NCBI GenBank assembly: GCA_001822075.1 | Contig: MHPK01000006.1 | Location: 124,977-183,898 of the forward strand | Length of the DNA stretch: 58,922 nt | Direction: 5' to 3' | Origin: Candidatus Staskawiczbacteria bacterium RIFOXYB1_FULL_38_37 | Lineage (GTDB): Bacteria > Patescibacteriota > Minisyncoccia > Minisyncoccales > Staskawiczbacteraceae | In this document: piece after piece, positions 18,195 through 58,766 of the stretch | Layout of the letters: each line of letters starts with the position of its first letter | Numbering within the stretch: position 1 is the first letter of the stretch | Notes under the pieces: model-generated | The model's database searches: none | What the model saw: only the letters and a program-made list of their open reading frames with translations | Told to the model about the DNA's origin: nothing | Position numbers and translations under genes: made by a program

Positions 18195-18233
18195 ATTCTT
18201 TATTAATTGTATTACTTTTAAAAATCAAAACAA

Positions 18234-18265
18234 GACCCGTTAGAAGCTGCAGCTTCTAACGGGTC
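18234..18265. repeat. 32-bp perfect palindrome GACCCGTTAGAAGCTGCAGCTTCTAACGGGTC (family D)
   Basis: Shares the CCCGTTAGAAG arm with the inverted repeat at 55675-55775. Confidence 0.9.
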
Positions 18266-18289
18266 AAGCCACAAAATTTTTAAATTTAA

Positions 18290-53917: not shown

Positions 53918-55732
53918 TTAATATTCTAAATAAGTTTCTAAAAATCCGTATCCTCCGATATGAATGTCATTTATTACTTTTGTCTGGTAGCCTGGCATAG
54001 AAATTATTATTTGGTAAGTATCTGAAGGCAAAAGCTCGGTGAATATAACCTGGCCTGGAGTGAAACAGCCAGAAATATAATTTAAATTAATGTTTGCTAA
54101 AACCGGAGTCTTGGAAGGGTCTTCTGTTGAAAGAAAAACCTTATAGCGCGCATAACGTTCGTTATTGTGGGCAGAGCTAATTGTAGCTCCAGGAACAGCA
54201 TAATAAGTTGAGCTTGTGCCGTCAGGGCCCAAAAAATTCCACGTTAAATTATCATTGTTTGTGGCAATCTGAAATTTAAGGCTTGCTGAAGGGTCCTGGG
54301 AGGCCGGCTGCCAATTCAAGGTTGTATAAGCTGTCAAATCAGTCCCTGTATCAAAAGTTGAAGATATCAAATAACCTGAAGCAACATAAAGGCCCCCATT
54401 TTCTGCGAGTTCTATGCCAGATGGCGCCGAATTATTTATATTTCCATCATCATCAAAATATCTTGCGGCATTAACAAAATCTTCCTGGCCTGAACCTCCT
54501 GACCAATCTTGCTGGCTCCAAACGTTTCCTCCTGTTATTTTTTCCATATTTACCGCAGGACTTGAGTTCACTAATTGCACTACAGCTCCCTCTATAGGGC
54601 TTTCTGTTGCAGAATCTTTCACTAAAACCAGCAAACTATTATTGGTTTTCGGCCCGAGTATCAAGCTGAAATTCTGGTTAATACCCGGCAACACAGAAGC
54701 TGGCTGGACAGGAGAAGTGCCGTAAACCATATAAGAACTTTCTTTCAATGTTGGAGTGTAATCATCCCATTCAATATCTTCTATCAAAACTTTTCCAATT
54801 GAATTTGAGGTGTAATCATTATCAAATTTTAAAACGTCAGGAGTGCCTATGAGCTTTGCGCCTTTGACATTAATTTCAACTCCTGAGATCGGCTGGCAAG
54901 CCTGGTCTTGCGTATTAAAAGATAAATCGCTCAATTGGTCGATTGAAAAACTGATATGAGTAACCTGGCCATTTGAAATAGTGGAGTCTGGTTTTATGGG
55001 ATTTGGGTTTTCTGGAGTAATAGAATAGGTCTGGTCTGAAGAAAAATTATCTTTTGTAGCTTCAATATGATATCCATTTACAGAATCTGGCAGACCCACT
55101 TCAATCCAATTTCCATTAGAATCGGCTGTTCTCGTAAGGTCAACATTTGGCTCAAGCAGGGTATTGATAATATGTATTTGAGCTCCGGGCACAGGTTCGC
55201 CCACAGAATTAAAAACTTCAATGGAAAGCGCTCCCCCGCTGTCCAAATCTTCTAAATTTTTGGGAACAACATTTGTTAAAAAACTATTTTCTCTGCCAGA
55301 ACCAATTGTTTTAATATAAAGCTTTACCTGCTTATAATCATTGGGGGCAGGGTCTGTGCCTAATAAAATAGTTCCGTCAGCCGGGTCGTCAATATAATTT
55401 ACCACATAATAAATTTGGTAATCTTTATTATCAAAAAAAATGTTAAGGGCATTGGGCAAATCCGGCAGATTGCCAGGGGGATTTCCGTTTACAGTGCCAA
55501 CTTGCGAATAAGGCAAATTACGAACGACTTCAAGGTACTGGCCAGCTAAAGAAGATATTGTTGTGCGCTCGCGGTAATATGCAATTCCGTTTATCATGGA
55601 AGTAAAAATCGCATATATTCCAGAACACAAAATAGCCACTATAGCCACAGCAACCAATATCTCAACAAGGGTAAACCCCGTTAGAAGTTTGCCGTCTTTA
55701 AAATATTTTTTTTTGGTTATTAAAAACTTCAT
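53918..55732 (-). CDS. large prepilin-type protein with carboxypeptidase-regulatory-like beta domains
   Basis: GFTLVEILVAVAI; PVPGAQIHI, PIEGAVV. Confidence 0.8.
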   Translation of the reverse strand: MKFLITKKKYFKDGKLLTGFTLVEILVAVAIVAILCSGIYAIFTSMINGIAYYRERTTISSLAGQYLEVVRNLPYSQVGTVNGNPPGNLPDLPNALNIFFDNKDYQIYYVVNYIDDPADGTILLGTDPAPNDYKQVKLYIKTIGSGRENSFLTNVVPKNLEDLDSGGALSIEVFNSVGEPVPGAQIHIINTLLEPNVDLTRTADSNGNWIEVGLPDSVNGYHIEATKDNFSSDQTYSITPENPNPIKPDSTISNGQVTHISFSIDQLSDLSFNTQDQACQPISGVEINVKGAKLIGTPDVLKFDNDYTSNSIGKVLIEDIEWDDYTPTLKESSYMVYGTSPVQPASVLPGINQNFSLILGPKTNNSLLVLVKDSATESPIEGAVVQLVNSSPAVNMEKITGGNVWSQQDWSGGSGQEDFVNAARYFDDDGNINNSAPSGIELAENGGLYVASGYLISSTFDTGTDLTAYTTLNWQPASQDPSASLKFQIATNNDNLTWNFLGPDGTSSTYYAVPGATISSAHNNERYARYKVFLSTEDPSKTPVLANINLNYISGCFTPGQVIFTELLPSDTYQIIISMPGYQTKVINDIHIGGYGFLETYLEY

Positions 55733-55775
55733 TGTTTTTCTGCGATGTTGTTGTCTTGCAAACTTCTAACGGGGT
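55675..55775. repeat. 18-bp perfect inverted repeat (family D arms) enclosing the pilin start codon
   Basis: ACCCCGTTAGAAGTTTGC at 55675-55692 and GCAAACTTCTAACGGGGT at 55758-55775. Confidence 0.9.
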
Positions 55776-55788
55776 AAACCCCCCCTTT

Positions 55789-57003
55789 TTACCTTATAGA
55801 TTGCAACGAGGAGTACATCGGCTCGATTATTGAGAATGCAAAAAATCCTACAGCCAAACCCAGCGCTATCAATAAAACCGGCTCTATTGCAGAAGAAAGC
55901 TTTGAAGTTGTTCTTATCAGCTCCTCTTCATAAAAATCAGCAAGAGTTTTTAACACGTTTGAAGTTTTTCCTGTTTCCTCGCCCACTTCTATCATTTCAA
56001 GCGCTCCCACAGGAAAAATGTCGCTGTAAGGCTGTAATGTTTTAGAAAGCCTCTCTCCTTTTTTTATTCTTTCTAAAGAGCCAGACAGAGCTTTTTTAAA
56101 ATAAAAATTACCCACAGTGCCGTGCACCACATCTAATGATTTTGTTAACGGCACTCCAGCCGACAAAAGAGAGCTTAAAGAACGTATAAAAATAGCGCAG
56201 TTGTTTTTTTTAACCAAAGACGAAATCAAGGGAATTCTCAAAAAAATTGTATCTAATGCGCGCTTGCCAGTTTTTGTTTTAGCCCACATCCATATTAAAA
56301 ATCCTAAAACAACAGGCGCAATTATCAAAAAGGGCCAATTTTTTACTGAAAAATCGCCCAAAGCAATTAATATCTTTGTATAAAAGGGAATTTCAGCGCC
56401 AACCCCCTTGAAAAAAGAATTTAAGCGAGGCAAAACCACCACAGCAACCACAGCTCCCACAGCTACCATCATTCCCAAAACAATACAGGGATAAATCATC
56501 GCCCCCTTTATTTCAGATTTTAAGCGGTGCTCTCTTTCCAAGTGCTGGGCTAAAATTTTTAATATATCCTCAAGCGTGCCAGATTCTTCTCCAACCTTAA
56601 CCATGCTCAAAAAAAACTGGGAAAAAATATCGGGGTATGAAGACAAAGATTCAGAAAGGCTTTTACCCTTATTGACCTGCTCTTTCACATTAAGCAGCGC
56701 ATTCTTCAATTTCTTGTTTTTGGCCTGCATAGAAAGCACCTCAAAACTGTTTACCAAAGAGAGACCGGTGGACACCATTACAGACAAGTTTCTTGTCATT
56801 AAAATCTTTTCTATTACAGGAACGTTTCCTAAAATAGATAAATTAAACAAATTTTTTCCCTTTGCTCCTTCTTGCAAAGCTGTAATCAAAATAAGATTGC
56901 TGTCCTTTAATTTTTGAAACAGTTCATGAGTGCTTTCAGCAATGGAATCTCCCTTAACTGTTTTTCCATCGGCAGTTTTTGCAGTATAAAAATATTTAGG
57001 CAT
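55789..57003 (-). CDS. pilC: type IV pilus platform protein PilC (GspF family)
   Basis: KVGEESGTLE, MIYPCIV, EVGEETG, IEPVL. Confidence 0.95.
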   Translation of the reverse strand: MPKYFYTAKTADGKTVKGDSIAESTHELFQKLKDSNLILITALQEGAKGKNLFNLSILGNVPVIEKILMTRNLSVMVSTGLSLVNSFEVLSMQAKNKKLKNALLNVKEQVNKGKSLSESLSSYPDIFSQFFLSMVKVGEESGTLEDILKILAQHLEREHRLKSEIKGAMIYPCIVLGMMVAVGAVVAVVVLPRLNSFFKGVGAEIPFYTKILIALGDFSVKNWPFLIIAPVVLGFLIWMWAKTKTGKRALDTIFLRIPLISSLVKKNNCAIFIRSLSSLLSAGVPLTKSLDVVHGTVGNFYFKKALSGSLERIKKGERLSKTLQPYSDIFPVGALEMIEVGEETGKTSNVLKTLADFYEEELIRTTSKLSSAIEPVLLIALGLAVGFFAFSIIEPMYSSLQSIR

Positions 57004-57005
57004 AA

Positions 57006-58766
57006 TTACTCTACAATAACTCTTAAAACTTCTTCTATTGAAGTAAGCCCTTGGGCGGCTTTTATAAAGCCGTCCTCAACCATTGTGCGCATTCCGTCTA
57101 ATATGGCTTGCTCTGCTATTTCGTTTGTCGCTGATTTTTTTACAATTAAAGTTTTTATTTTTTCAGTCACCGGCAGAACTTCAAAAATTCCTATTCTTCC
57201 TTTATATCCGTCCGGGCAGTCTTTTGAGGGCTTGGCTCTGAAAAAATTAACATCTTCTATTTTATCTTTTGCTTTTGCCAAGCCTTCTTTTTTTAAAATC
57301 TCTAAAATTTTATTTAAGTCGCAATATTTTGATAAATTTTTTAAATCAGCTTGTTTTAATTTGTAAGGCTCTTTCTCCTCATAAATTTTTCTGACAAGCC
57401 TTTGGGCTATTATCAAATTCAAGGTTGAAGAAATTAAAAAGGGTTCAGCTTTCATGTCAATAAGCCTGGGCATTGTTCCTGCGGCTGAAGTGGTGTGCAA
57501 AGTAGACAAAACCAAATGGCCTGTTAAAGCTGCATTAATTGCAAGCCCGGCTGTTTCGTCATCTCTAATTTCTCCCACCATAATAATATCAGGGTCCTGC
57601 CTCACCAGCACCCTGAGGCCGGCGGCAAACGTCAATCCTATTTTTGAATTCACCTGCGTCTGGTTTATTCTCGGCATTCTGTATTCAATAGGGTCTTCAA
57701 CAGTTGAAATATTTACATCGGGAGTGTTTAATATCTCCATCATTGTGTACAAAGTGGTTGTTTTTCCAGACCCCGTTGGCCCTACCACCAAAATCATTCC
57801 AGCCGGCCTTTCCAAATTATCTTGCACATATTCTAAAGCTTTGTCGGCAAGACCCAACCCCTCCAAAGTAGTTGCTTTTACGTCTTCTGCGAGCATTCTC
57901 ATTACAATTTTTTCTCCGTTATACACTGGCAAAACAGAAACCCTGACAGAATATTTAAAATATTCTGTCTCAATTTTAAACCTGCCATCTTGCGGAAGCC
58001 TGTGCTCGTCAAGCTTTAAATTAGAAAGCACTTTTATCCTGGCTACAATGCCGGGAGCCACAGAAACCGGGAGGGTCATCACAACGTGCAAAATTCCGTC
58101 AACTCTGTAGCGCACAATAACCTCTTTTTCCAAGGGTTCTATATGCACATCAGACGCTCTTTGCAAAATAGCGTGCTTTAGCAAAGTATCAACAACTTTT
58201 ATTATAGGAAGCTCTTCTGCGGCCTTCTGCAATCTTTCCTTGCCTCCGAAAATTTCAGCTATGCCTTCGTCTTTTATGTGCCTTACATCTTGGGTTTCCT
58301 CTTTAATAATTTCTTTGAATTCTGTTTCCAGAGTTTTTTGGTATTGCGCTAAAGCATTTTTTATACCGCTGGTTGTGGTAAGACAGGAAACTATTCTTAA
58401 AGAAGGATTGCTCTTTTGTATAAATTCAATGGTTCTTAAGTCTTCTGGGTCCAACATAGCAACCTCAAGCTTGTTGCCTTGTTTTTTAAAAGCAATAATA
58501 TTGTGCACTCTGGCTATGGGCTCTGGAATTATTTTTAAAATTTCCGCGGGAATTGCCTCTTTGTTTAAATTTATAAAAGGTATCCCAGACAGATGCGCCT
58601 TGATTTTTATAAACTCCTCTTCTGGCAAAAGCCCTGATGCAACCAAAATATCGCCAACTTTTCTGTTGCCTTCTTTGCTTTCTAACAGGGCTTTTTCAAA
58701 CTGCTTTTCTGAAACAAGCCCTGCGTCCAAAAGAAACTTTTTCAGTTTCTGTTCGTCAATTTTCAT
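57006..58766 (-). CDS. pilB: type IV pilus extension ATPase PilB (GspE family)
   Basis: ASDVHIEP, GPTGSGKTTTLY, EDPIEY, LVRQDPDIIMVGEIRD, LTGHLVLSTLHT. Confidence 0.95.
   Translation of the reverse strand: MKIDEQKLKKFLLDAGLVSEKQFEKALLESKEGNRKVGDILVASGLLPEEEFIKIKAHLSGIPFINLNKEAIPAEILKIIPEPIARVHNIIAFKKQGNKLEVAMLDPEDLRTIEFIQKSNPSLRIVSCLTTTSGIKNALAQYQKTLETEFKEIIKEETQDVRHIKDEGIAEIFGGKERLQKAAEELPIIKVVDTLLKHAILQRASDVHIEPLEKEVIVRYRVDGILHVVMTLPVSVAPGIVARIKVLSNLKLDEHRLPQDGRFKIETEYFKYSVRVSVLPVYNGEKIVMRMLAEDVKATTLEGLGLADKALEYVQDNLERPAGMILVVGPTGSGKTTTLYTMMEILNTPDVNISTVEDPIEYRMPRINQTQVNSKIGLTFAAGLRVLVRQDPDIIMVGEIRDDETAGLAINAALTGHLVLSTLHTTSAAGTMPRLIDMKAEPFLISSTLNLIIAQRLVRKIYEEKEPYKLKQADLKNLSKYCDLNKILEILKKEGLAKAKDKIEDVNFFRAKPSKDCPDGYKGRIGIFEVLPVTEKIKTLIVKKSATNEIAEQAILDGMRTMVEDGFIKAAQGLTSIEEVLRVIVE

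Follow-up and report, generated by a model that had tools for sequence, protein, structure and literature searches.

The Rickettsia palindromic elements (RPEs) are reportedly short palindromic selfish repeats, which persist in protein-coding genes by being translated. The Correia/NEMIS elements of Neisseria are about 100-150 bp long, with terminal repeats and a short duplication, and are co-transcribed with neighbouring genes to give long messenger RNA (mRNA) stems that RNase III can cut. They duplicate TA, lie mostly outside coding sequence and act via promoters or processing; we know of no partner enzyme for them. The REP/REPIN repeats have a GTAG-type head and no target duplication, and are tied to a Y1 (HUH) transposase (RAYT). 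The window analysed here is a stretch of 58,922 nucleotides (nt) (C6:124977-183898) from Candidatus Staskawiczbacteria bacterium RIFOXYB1_FULL_38_37 (genome G000; 762 kb, 37% G+C, 7 contigs), in which a palindromic element encloses the start of a type IV pilin-like gene. The element belongs to a dispersed repeat family with the ends CCCCGTTAGA and TCTAACGGGG. The palindrome is probably an old, fixed insertion of a non-autonomous hairpin element, which donated the start codon and the leader of the pilin and whose mRNA stem would be a by-product.

The family resembles the RPEs in that translation also runs in frame through copies of it, namely those in pilin leaders and one in a release-factor gene. 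However, sequence and host lineage are unrelated, and the CCCCGTTAGA family has a clear 4-bp TNNA duplication and prefers start codons and prepilin cleavage codons; the pilin copy gives a start codon and a whole cut-off signal peptide rather than a loop in the mature protein. With Correia/NEMIS, the pilin element has in common the size class of about 100-150 bp, the terminal repeats, the short duplication and the long mRNA stem, whereas the CCCCGTTAGA family has gene-bearing forms with a GIY-YIG nuclease. The preliminary description of this locus had called the element REPIN-like. Both families are indeed dispersed short palindromic repeats, often long hairpins as inverted doublets, but this label had to be given up because the pilin element ends in CCCCGTTAGA and not in GTAG-type REP units, has a 4-bp target duplication, and has gene-bearing relatives with a GIY-YIG nuclease.

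The Ssn GIY-YIG nucleases of clade cd10448 are framed by their own NTS/SRM hairpin repeats and cut single-stranded DNA beside the repeat (Chenal et al. 2025, PMC11893778). The NTS/SRM unit is a hairpin of ~30 nt of the ATTCCC-N8-GGGAAT type, and the same paper describes neither target duplications nor insertions at start codons or in pilin leaders (PMC11893778). Common to both systems is a small single-domain GIY-YIG gene between copies of a repeat that also occurs dispersed without a gene; here, the gene lies in ~300-bp units with CCCCGTTAGA arms and encodes 84-93 amino acids (aa). However, NTS/SRM is not a terminal inverted-repeat pair around a variable interior, as judged by eye when the architecture was set apart from the published NTS. 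In the literature on miniature inverted-repeat transposable elements (MITEs) of Patescibacteria, on prepilins with MITEs and on GIY-YIG proteins with target-site duplications, no description of such an element was found. The known kind is the in-frame or exapted MITE such as the RPEs, with a link to Ssn-like nucleases, and what is new is an old inherited copy on which a gene has been made dependent. A well-documented copy of this sort is hereby added to a repeat family that is tied to small GIY-YIG nucleases and whose biology is barely in print.

The features of the locus are listed in Table 1, in which, as in the text, a slash in a protein sequence marks the prepilin cleavage site. The perfect 18-bp inverted arms with a 65-nt spacer containing the ATG, as given in the preliminary description, were present: ACCCCGTTAGAAGTTTGC lies at 55675-55692 on the plus strand and its exact reverse complement at 55758-55775 (two matches seen, 0.05 expected from shuffles). 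The pairing extends to 24 nt at 92% complementarity (55669-55692 / 55758-55781). The in-gene arm is read GGC AAA CTT CTA ACG GGG (G-K-L-L-T-G) and is followed by TTT ACC CTT GTT GAG (F-T-L-V-E), again as described before, and the Pfam N_methyl match of the 604-aa protein covers residues 19-40 (25.1 bits, cut-off 21.2). The 11-nt direct repeat GGGTAAACCCC that had been noted over both outer ends (55669-55679 and 55772-55782) consists of the duplicated TTTA, the C/G runs at the ends of the element and the G and C of the target itself. In the predicted fold of the minus-strand RNA, the AUG lies in the loop of a long stem (-45.2 kcal/mol, z = -4.8), and none of 200 shuffles was as stable. A search for promoters and terminators within the pilin element found none.

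Table 1 Features of the pilin locus and of the second family copy in the window
Feature	Coordinates	Strand	Description
Element proper, 99 nt	55676..55774	(-)	CCCCGTTAGAAG...CTTCTAACGGGG; gene-less hairpin element of the CCCCGTTAGA terminal-repeat family
Upstream (5') mRNA arm	55758..55775	(-)	ACCCCGUUAGAAGUUUGC; untranslated; a TAG in it stops the pilin frame ahead of the ATG
Downstream (3') mRNA arm	55675..55692	(-)	GCAAACUUCUAACGGGGU; translated (G)KLLTG; terminal GGG is the Gly-1 codon of the cleavage site
Interior/loop, 65 nt	55693..55757	(-)	A-rich leader without Shine-Dalgarno; ATG at 55732-55730; codons 1-13 of MKFLITKKKYFKDGKLLTG
Target-site duplication, gene-side copy	55672..55675	(-)	TTTA; Phe+1 and first base of Thr+2
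Target-site duplication, upstream copy	55775..55778	(-)	TTTA on the minus strand
Relic of ancestral leader end	55775..55788	(-)	AAA(A)GGGGGGGTTTA; ..K-K-G-G/F in the pilin frame; right after the pilC stop; start-less
Second window copy	18231..18268		Minimal hairpin CAAG-ACCCGTTAGAAGCTGCAGCTTCTAACGGGT-CAAG; 4-nt CAAG duplication; between two minus-strand genes
Type IV pilin-like gene, 604 aa	53918..55732	(-)	Class III signal peptide and N-terminal helix, then CarboxypepD_reg-type domain
pilC	55789..57003	(-)	T2SSF platform protein (Pfam)
pilB	57006..58766	(-)	T2SSE assembly ATPase (Pfam)

The N-terminus of the 604-aa open reading frame (ORF) is MKFLITKKKYFKDGKLLTG/FTLVEILVAVAIVAIL, with the leader before and the mature part after the slash. 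Its leader ends in Gly (...LLTG/FTLVEILVAVAIVAIL) and is followed by Phe+1, Glu+5 and a hydrophobic helix, a prepilin peptidase gene (Peptidase_A24) is encoded in G000, and pilus assembly genes lie nearby, all of which agrees with a class III prepilin; cleavage would be expected after Gly19. The leader has 19 residues ending LTG, whereas the remaining seven pilin-like genes of G000 have leaders of 4-11 aa ending KG, and this difference provides a natural experiment on the variability of class III signal peptides.

The arms are those of a dispersed family. At 13-14 sites in G000, the core CCCCGTTAGA is paired in inverted orientation with its complement, 19-137 nt away, and exact core 11-mers occur 24 times in this genome, compared with ~0.2 estimated from base composition. 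The paired core was found in 19 of 41 relatives, members of other families of the order among them, while a reversed-pattern control gave 0. Sixty copies fetched from relatives were pooled with the 13 paired copies of G000 into a set of 73 paired copies from 20 genomes. The family ends CCCCGTTAGA / TCTAACGGGG are common to all of them, and the interiors differ widely, from 3-nt loops up to ~110 nt. An exact 4-nt direct repeat flanks CCCC...GGGG in 48 of the 73 copies (~0.5% expected by chance) and an inverted flank in 4 only; the duplicated word has the consensus T-N-N-A, with T and A each at 93%, and is TTTA in the pilin copy. These flanking duplications point to a transposon-like insertion and not to a REP/REPIN unit, operator or uptake sequence. 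Judged from its sequence, the element is MITE-like, that is, a non-autonomous hairpin with terminal inverted repeats CCCCGTTAGA(A/G)... and a 4-bp TNNA duplication. The earlier proposal that the arms come from a dispersed palindromic repeat family and were domesticated as pilin leader was right in this respect, and start codon, leader and Gly-1 codon are all supplied by the element.

The motif might instead be read not as mobile DNA but as a conserved host signal lying over the pilin start, for example a sequence for DNA uptake, a pair of operators or a stem for RNA processing. Its core of 10-12 nt is kept from family to family of the order, and even between phyla, whereas the interiors vary, and two arm pairs wrap complete transfer RNA (tRNA) genes (G000:C4:96108-96255 and G023:C1:564323-564427, the latter with a stem of ~19 bp directly around the tRNA). 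However, direct flank repeats in so many copies are unexpected for a host signal, filled and empty orthologous sites both exist, and one copy lies in frame within a release-factor gene. The element matched no Rfam family and gave only sub-threshold microRNA-hairpin noise. The density of ~1 per 30 kb with almost constant pairing is also unlike that of uptake sequences. A host signal is therefore very improbable, and the uptake-sequence and operator-pair readings were rejected in view of the duplicated flanks, the sparse copies and the fact that nearly all of them are paired.

Comparison of orthologous loci revealed both filled and empty sites. In-silico removal of 55676-55774 together with one TTTA leaves pilC-TAA-AAAGGGGGGGTTTACCCTTGTTGAG, in which the frame TAA GGT AAA AAG GGG GGG TTT ACC (stop-G-K-K-G-G/F-T) is the end of a short leader with no start codon. 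Empty orthologous sites behind pilC, with short leaders and no arms, were found in G007, G010, G006, G023, G002 and G016, and the leaders at empty sites read MKIDNFKKG/FTLIE, MFQKG/ITLIE, MEQKG/FTIVE, MMKKAFG/FTLIE and MNFQFSISKQRSRGG/FSLVE. Similarly, the nearest relatives of the query pilin, P0001, P0003 and P0004 (73-74% identical), have an empty site and short leaders. A long leader was present in only two of the 120 best homologues from a large protein collection: P0002 (locus L032; MQLLTSSKKYSKNGKSLTG/FSLIE, 73% identical to the query pilin) and P0005 (locus L037; ...MKSSIFAKRYFKDGKLLTG/LTLVE, 61% identical). The DNA of L032 and L037 contains the same element at the same codon as in G000 and in the same orientation. 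The protein identity of the three pilins is 61-74%. Their elements are 75-80% identical over the full length, interior included, and the first 150 nt of the mature pilin DNA 62-72%; the insertion is thus old, about the age of these lineages. To the left of its element, L037 still has the former start in intact form, TTG GAA AAG GGG TTT AC (MEKG/FT). A metagenome scan that used the pilin as query found no closer relatives of it.

The same codon has also been hit in unrelated pilins. Among 401 genomes of the order, 10 genomes from 7 families contain the right arm joined to F-(T/S)-L-(I/V)-E codons, at 12 sites in total (control 0), and the genes concerned encode unrelated pilins, 133-586 aa long. 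At 8 of the 12 sites the CCCCGTTAG partner arm lies in exact form 40-119 nt upstream, and two more sites (L047, L054) have a decayed arm. Other pilins with LTG/FT leaders, to which the preliminary description had pointed as a possible survey, thus contain the same DNA arm and usually the upstream partner as well. The left junction is usually GGN-TTY-A/CCCCGTTAGA (G-F-T-P-L-E, the slash here marking the element boundary) and the right junction L-T-G/F-T-L. The short pilin copies have lengths divisible by three (54-90 nt, with the duplication counted in) and are read through from the original ATG, for example in MFKNLNKNKGFTPLEILGAGKKDKESKSLTG/FTLIE. In the longer copies (G000, G003, G012, G298) an ATG of the element itself is used, and the old starts are decayed. 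A paralogue in G298 has the same element-derived leader and right arm and no left arm, and in G235 and G232 the left arms are decayed and the genes still open. These cases show that an open, apparently functional gene does not need the hairpin. In the pooled set, 6 of the 73 copies sit exactly on the Phe+1 codon of a pilin, and G000 has only 8 such sites among ~70,900 TNNA words.

Start codons are the other preferred position. The 18 start-codon copies among the 73 have the form ATGAA-(element)-G/TGAA, in which the present GTG start consists of the element's last G and the duplication. Dropping the element and one duplication restores ATG-AAN and, at gene overlaps, the upstream stop. In G000 such copies lie at dnaN, rnhA, miaA, an fba-like gene and others. 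Furthermore, a copy in the release-factor gene (G000:C6:78143-78171), a 29-nt hairpin which with TTTA makes 33 nt, is in frame and puts roughly ..NPVRDDVSNGV.. into the stretch that separates the conserved motifs VLPE and DL(K/R)I. The start-codon copies of G000 include a subfamily of ~100 nt (C2:59839, C4:15659, C4:64822, C6:43999, C6:52586 and C6:106000). Its interiors contain a truncated third arm copy (AACGGGG), able to pair with the left instead of the right arm, and a second hairpin with a promoter-like box TTGTCT-N18-TATATAAAG that points at the downstream gene.

The preliminary description also proposed that inversion or excision could switch the pilin off. The inverted arms would then be recombination sites, and the pilin would go off and on as the 65-bp spacer is flipped or the element is lost. 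Perfect 18-bp inverted repeats around the start codon and 4-bp direct repeats around the element would suit such a device. However, one orientation was found in G000, L032 and L037 in spite of their divergence, and in all strain assemblies examined: the exact PilC protein is listed in 95 collection blocks, the 604-aa ORF adjoins it in 24 of 24 contigs examined, and three representative contigs show no difference over 5466 nt. For invertase-type synapsis, a spacer of 65 bp is very short. If the element were excised, the start codon would go with it and TAA GGT AAA AAG GGG GGG TTT would be left, an irreversible knockout rather than a switch. The sister copies argue in the same direction, since all seven start-codon copies of G000 keep one orientation relative to the gene, and those at dnaN, rnhA, miaA and fba lie on genes that cannot be phase-variable. 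A switch at the pilin start is therefore extremely improbable.

We propose that the element entered the word TTTA within GGN-TTT-ACN (Gly-1/Phe+1/Thr+2; here GGG TTT ACC) of a pilin with a short leader of the M..KKG/FTL type. The duplicated TTTA would restore Phe-Thr, the last bases of the element, GGG, would give a new Gly-1, and the right repeat would be read Leu-Thr-Gly in frame, while the interior of the ~100-nt subfamily would bring an in-frame ATG and then Lys-rich codons. Translation would now begin inside the element, and the whole 19-residue leader is element-encoded; it is presumably removed by the prepilin peptidase of the genome, which would leave the mature pilin unchanged. The old leader has decayed to the start-less stub, and for this reason the gene now depends on the element. 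The mRNA stem of 18-24 bp would be a by-product of the terminal repeats. The AUG would lie in the 65-nt loop, flanked on either side by ~40 free nt, which should make initiation possible, and elongating ribosomes would open the stem. Such a history shows how selfish DNA may survive in the genes of an extremely compact genome, where it occupies a part of the protein that is discarded, rebuilds the processing site and becomes indispensable through the start codon.

Several points weigh against an insertion with a neutral stem. The mobility of the element would follow from the duplications and from empty versus filled sites, and no insertion event was seen happening. In the tree, the element-free P0001, P0003 and P0004 are placed inside the clade of G000 and P0002 (support 100/100 and 99/95) with P0005 outside, which calls for at least two events in which the 5' region was lost or replaced, or else for several gains. 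No element scar was found in the empty sites of P0001 and P0003, nor any convincing homology beyond the first ~35 nt after pilC. Moreover, the untranslated left arm is identical between G000 and L037 at 18 of 18 positions, while the interiors are only ~80% identical, and this hints that the stem or the repeat is constrained. The arm of L032 has changes at three positions, two of which are compensated on the opposite arm. The conservation of the arms hints at some constraint, and a purely neutral by-product may be too simple.

The stem could accordingly have been kept by selection as a cis-regulatory RNA device of the pilin, as an RNase III target or a translation throttle. RNase III would then uncouple or destroy the pilin message, or pilin synthesis would need pilC ribosomes, temperature or a stem-melting factor. 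In agreement with this, all three orthologous copies fold very stably with the AUG in the loop (-32 to -59 kcal/mol, z -6.8 to -10.6), the arm cores are invariant, two arm positions changed on both sides in L032, the pilC stop codon lies 8 nt ahead of the extended stem, and RNase III is encoded in the genome. However, like stems lie on the starts of dnaN, rnhA, miaA and fba, which must be expressed, and the G298 paralogue and the G235 and G232 genes have lost or decayed left arms. The covariation is weak, coming from three sequences only, and the arm conservation could equally reflect recognition by the nuclease of the family. A regulatory role thus seems unlikely. Because of the arm-less and arm-decayed examples and the copies at essential genes, a near-neutral by-product of the insertion appears to be the simpler reading of the stem.

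Gene-bearing relatives were found by scanning one genome per species for two arms 265-295 nt apart, which gave 115 stretches in Patescibacteria, Omnitrophota, Planctomycetota, Bacteroidota, Proteobacteria, Nitrospirota and others. About 45 of the 80 units read, which are ~300 bp long, encode a GIY-YIG protein of 84-93 aa between the arms (Pfam E about 1e-16). The 10-nt termini CCCCGTTAGA/TCTAACGGGG are identical in such units of very distant phyla (L126-L205), and 12 of the GIY-YIG proteins end ...LTG in the right arm, which is the frame used by the pilin. The best relatives with solved structures (PDB) of the arm-associated proteins are UPF0213 proteins. An exact 4-nt flank repeat was present in only 17 of the 80 ~300-bp units, so it is rarer there than in the short copies. 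These units suggest that the GIY-YIG protein may be the mobilising enzyme of the element. An IS1380/piggyBac-like transposase, which was suggested by the CC... ends and the 4-bp AT-rich duplication, was rejected: PF13701 is absent in G000 and gave nothing above the cut-off in 40 relatives.

The right end of the element seems shaped for its landing sites, in that Leu-Thr-Gly lies in the frame of the nuclease and the last G or Gs rebuild Gly-1 or a GTG start. It is possible, although still doubtful, that a hairpin transposon spread across phyla, with a GIY-YIG nuclease of ~85 aa as its sole gene, prefers the GGN-TTY-ACN prepilin codons and the ATG-AAN starts as landing sites, or has safe harbours in them. 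If the nuclease truly mobilises these units, they would form a new class of duplication-forming transposon, among the smallest known, and the pilins would be its dependent hosts. G000 itself has four GIY-YIG genes of 81-87 aa (C1:13715-13918, C6:75339-75548, C7:51023-51223 and C4:39018-39212). They adjoin tRNA genes, and at least three of them lie directly upstream of one whose first bases are repeated beyond the nuclease gene. None of the four is flanked by arms of the CCCCGTTAGA family, their own arms being different, and no partner of the element was identified in this genome.

In the window, the pilin gene is placed behind pilB and pilC in an operon pilB-pilC-pilin...pilM, with pilM downstream. 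The history of the element accounts for gene callers mis-starting or truncating such pilin genes. In L037, the called ORF begins at a TTG in the left arm, so that the leader is over-extended. In the P0003/P0004 loci (L038-L042) the leader frame, ..IFNIKNKIKNAKG/FTLIE, is open, but none of the codons ATG, GTG and TTG occurs in it downstream of the in-frame stop; these orthologues may start at ATT or ATA, and gene callers had shortened the genes to starts inside the mature helix.

The 32-bp palindrome at 18234, which had been described as made of the same arm as that of the pilin, does exist and is perfect (18234-18265, 32 nt), but only the 11-nt core CCCGTTAGAAG is common to it and the pilin arm. 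The arms of this copy (18231-18268) have a matched C-to-A / G-to-T change (ACCC...GGGT) and no T-run follows; the stem might act in the manner of an attenuator or a terminator. A run of seven G on the minus strand (55779-55785), which separates the pilC stop from the pilin element, extends the stem of that element. The run lies outside any ORF in G000, so length slippage shifts no frame, and an unrelated pilin copy in G012 also has G7. Finally, the element interior in L037 (L037:1400-1640, contig ERZ27254749) holds a nested, unrelated GC-rich palindrome of 31 nt, GGCAAAAGTCCAGCTGGACTTTTGCC.

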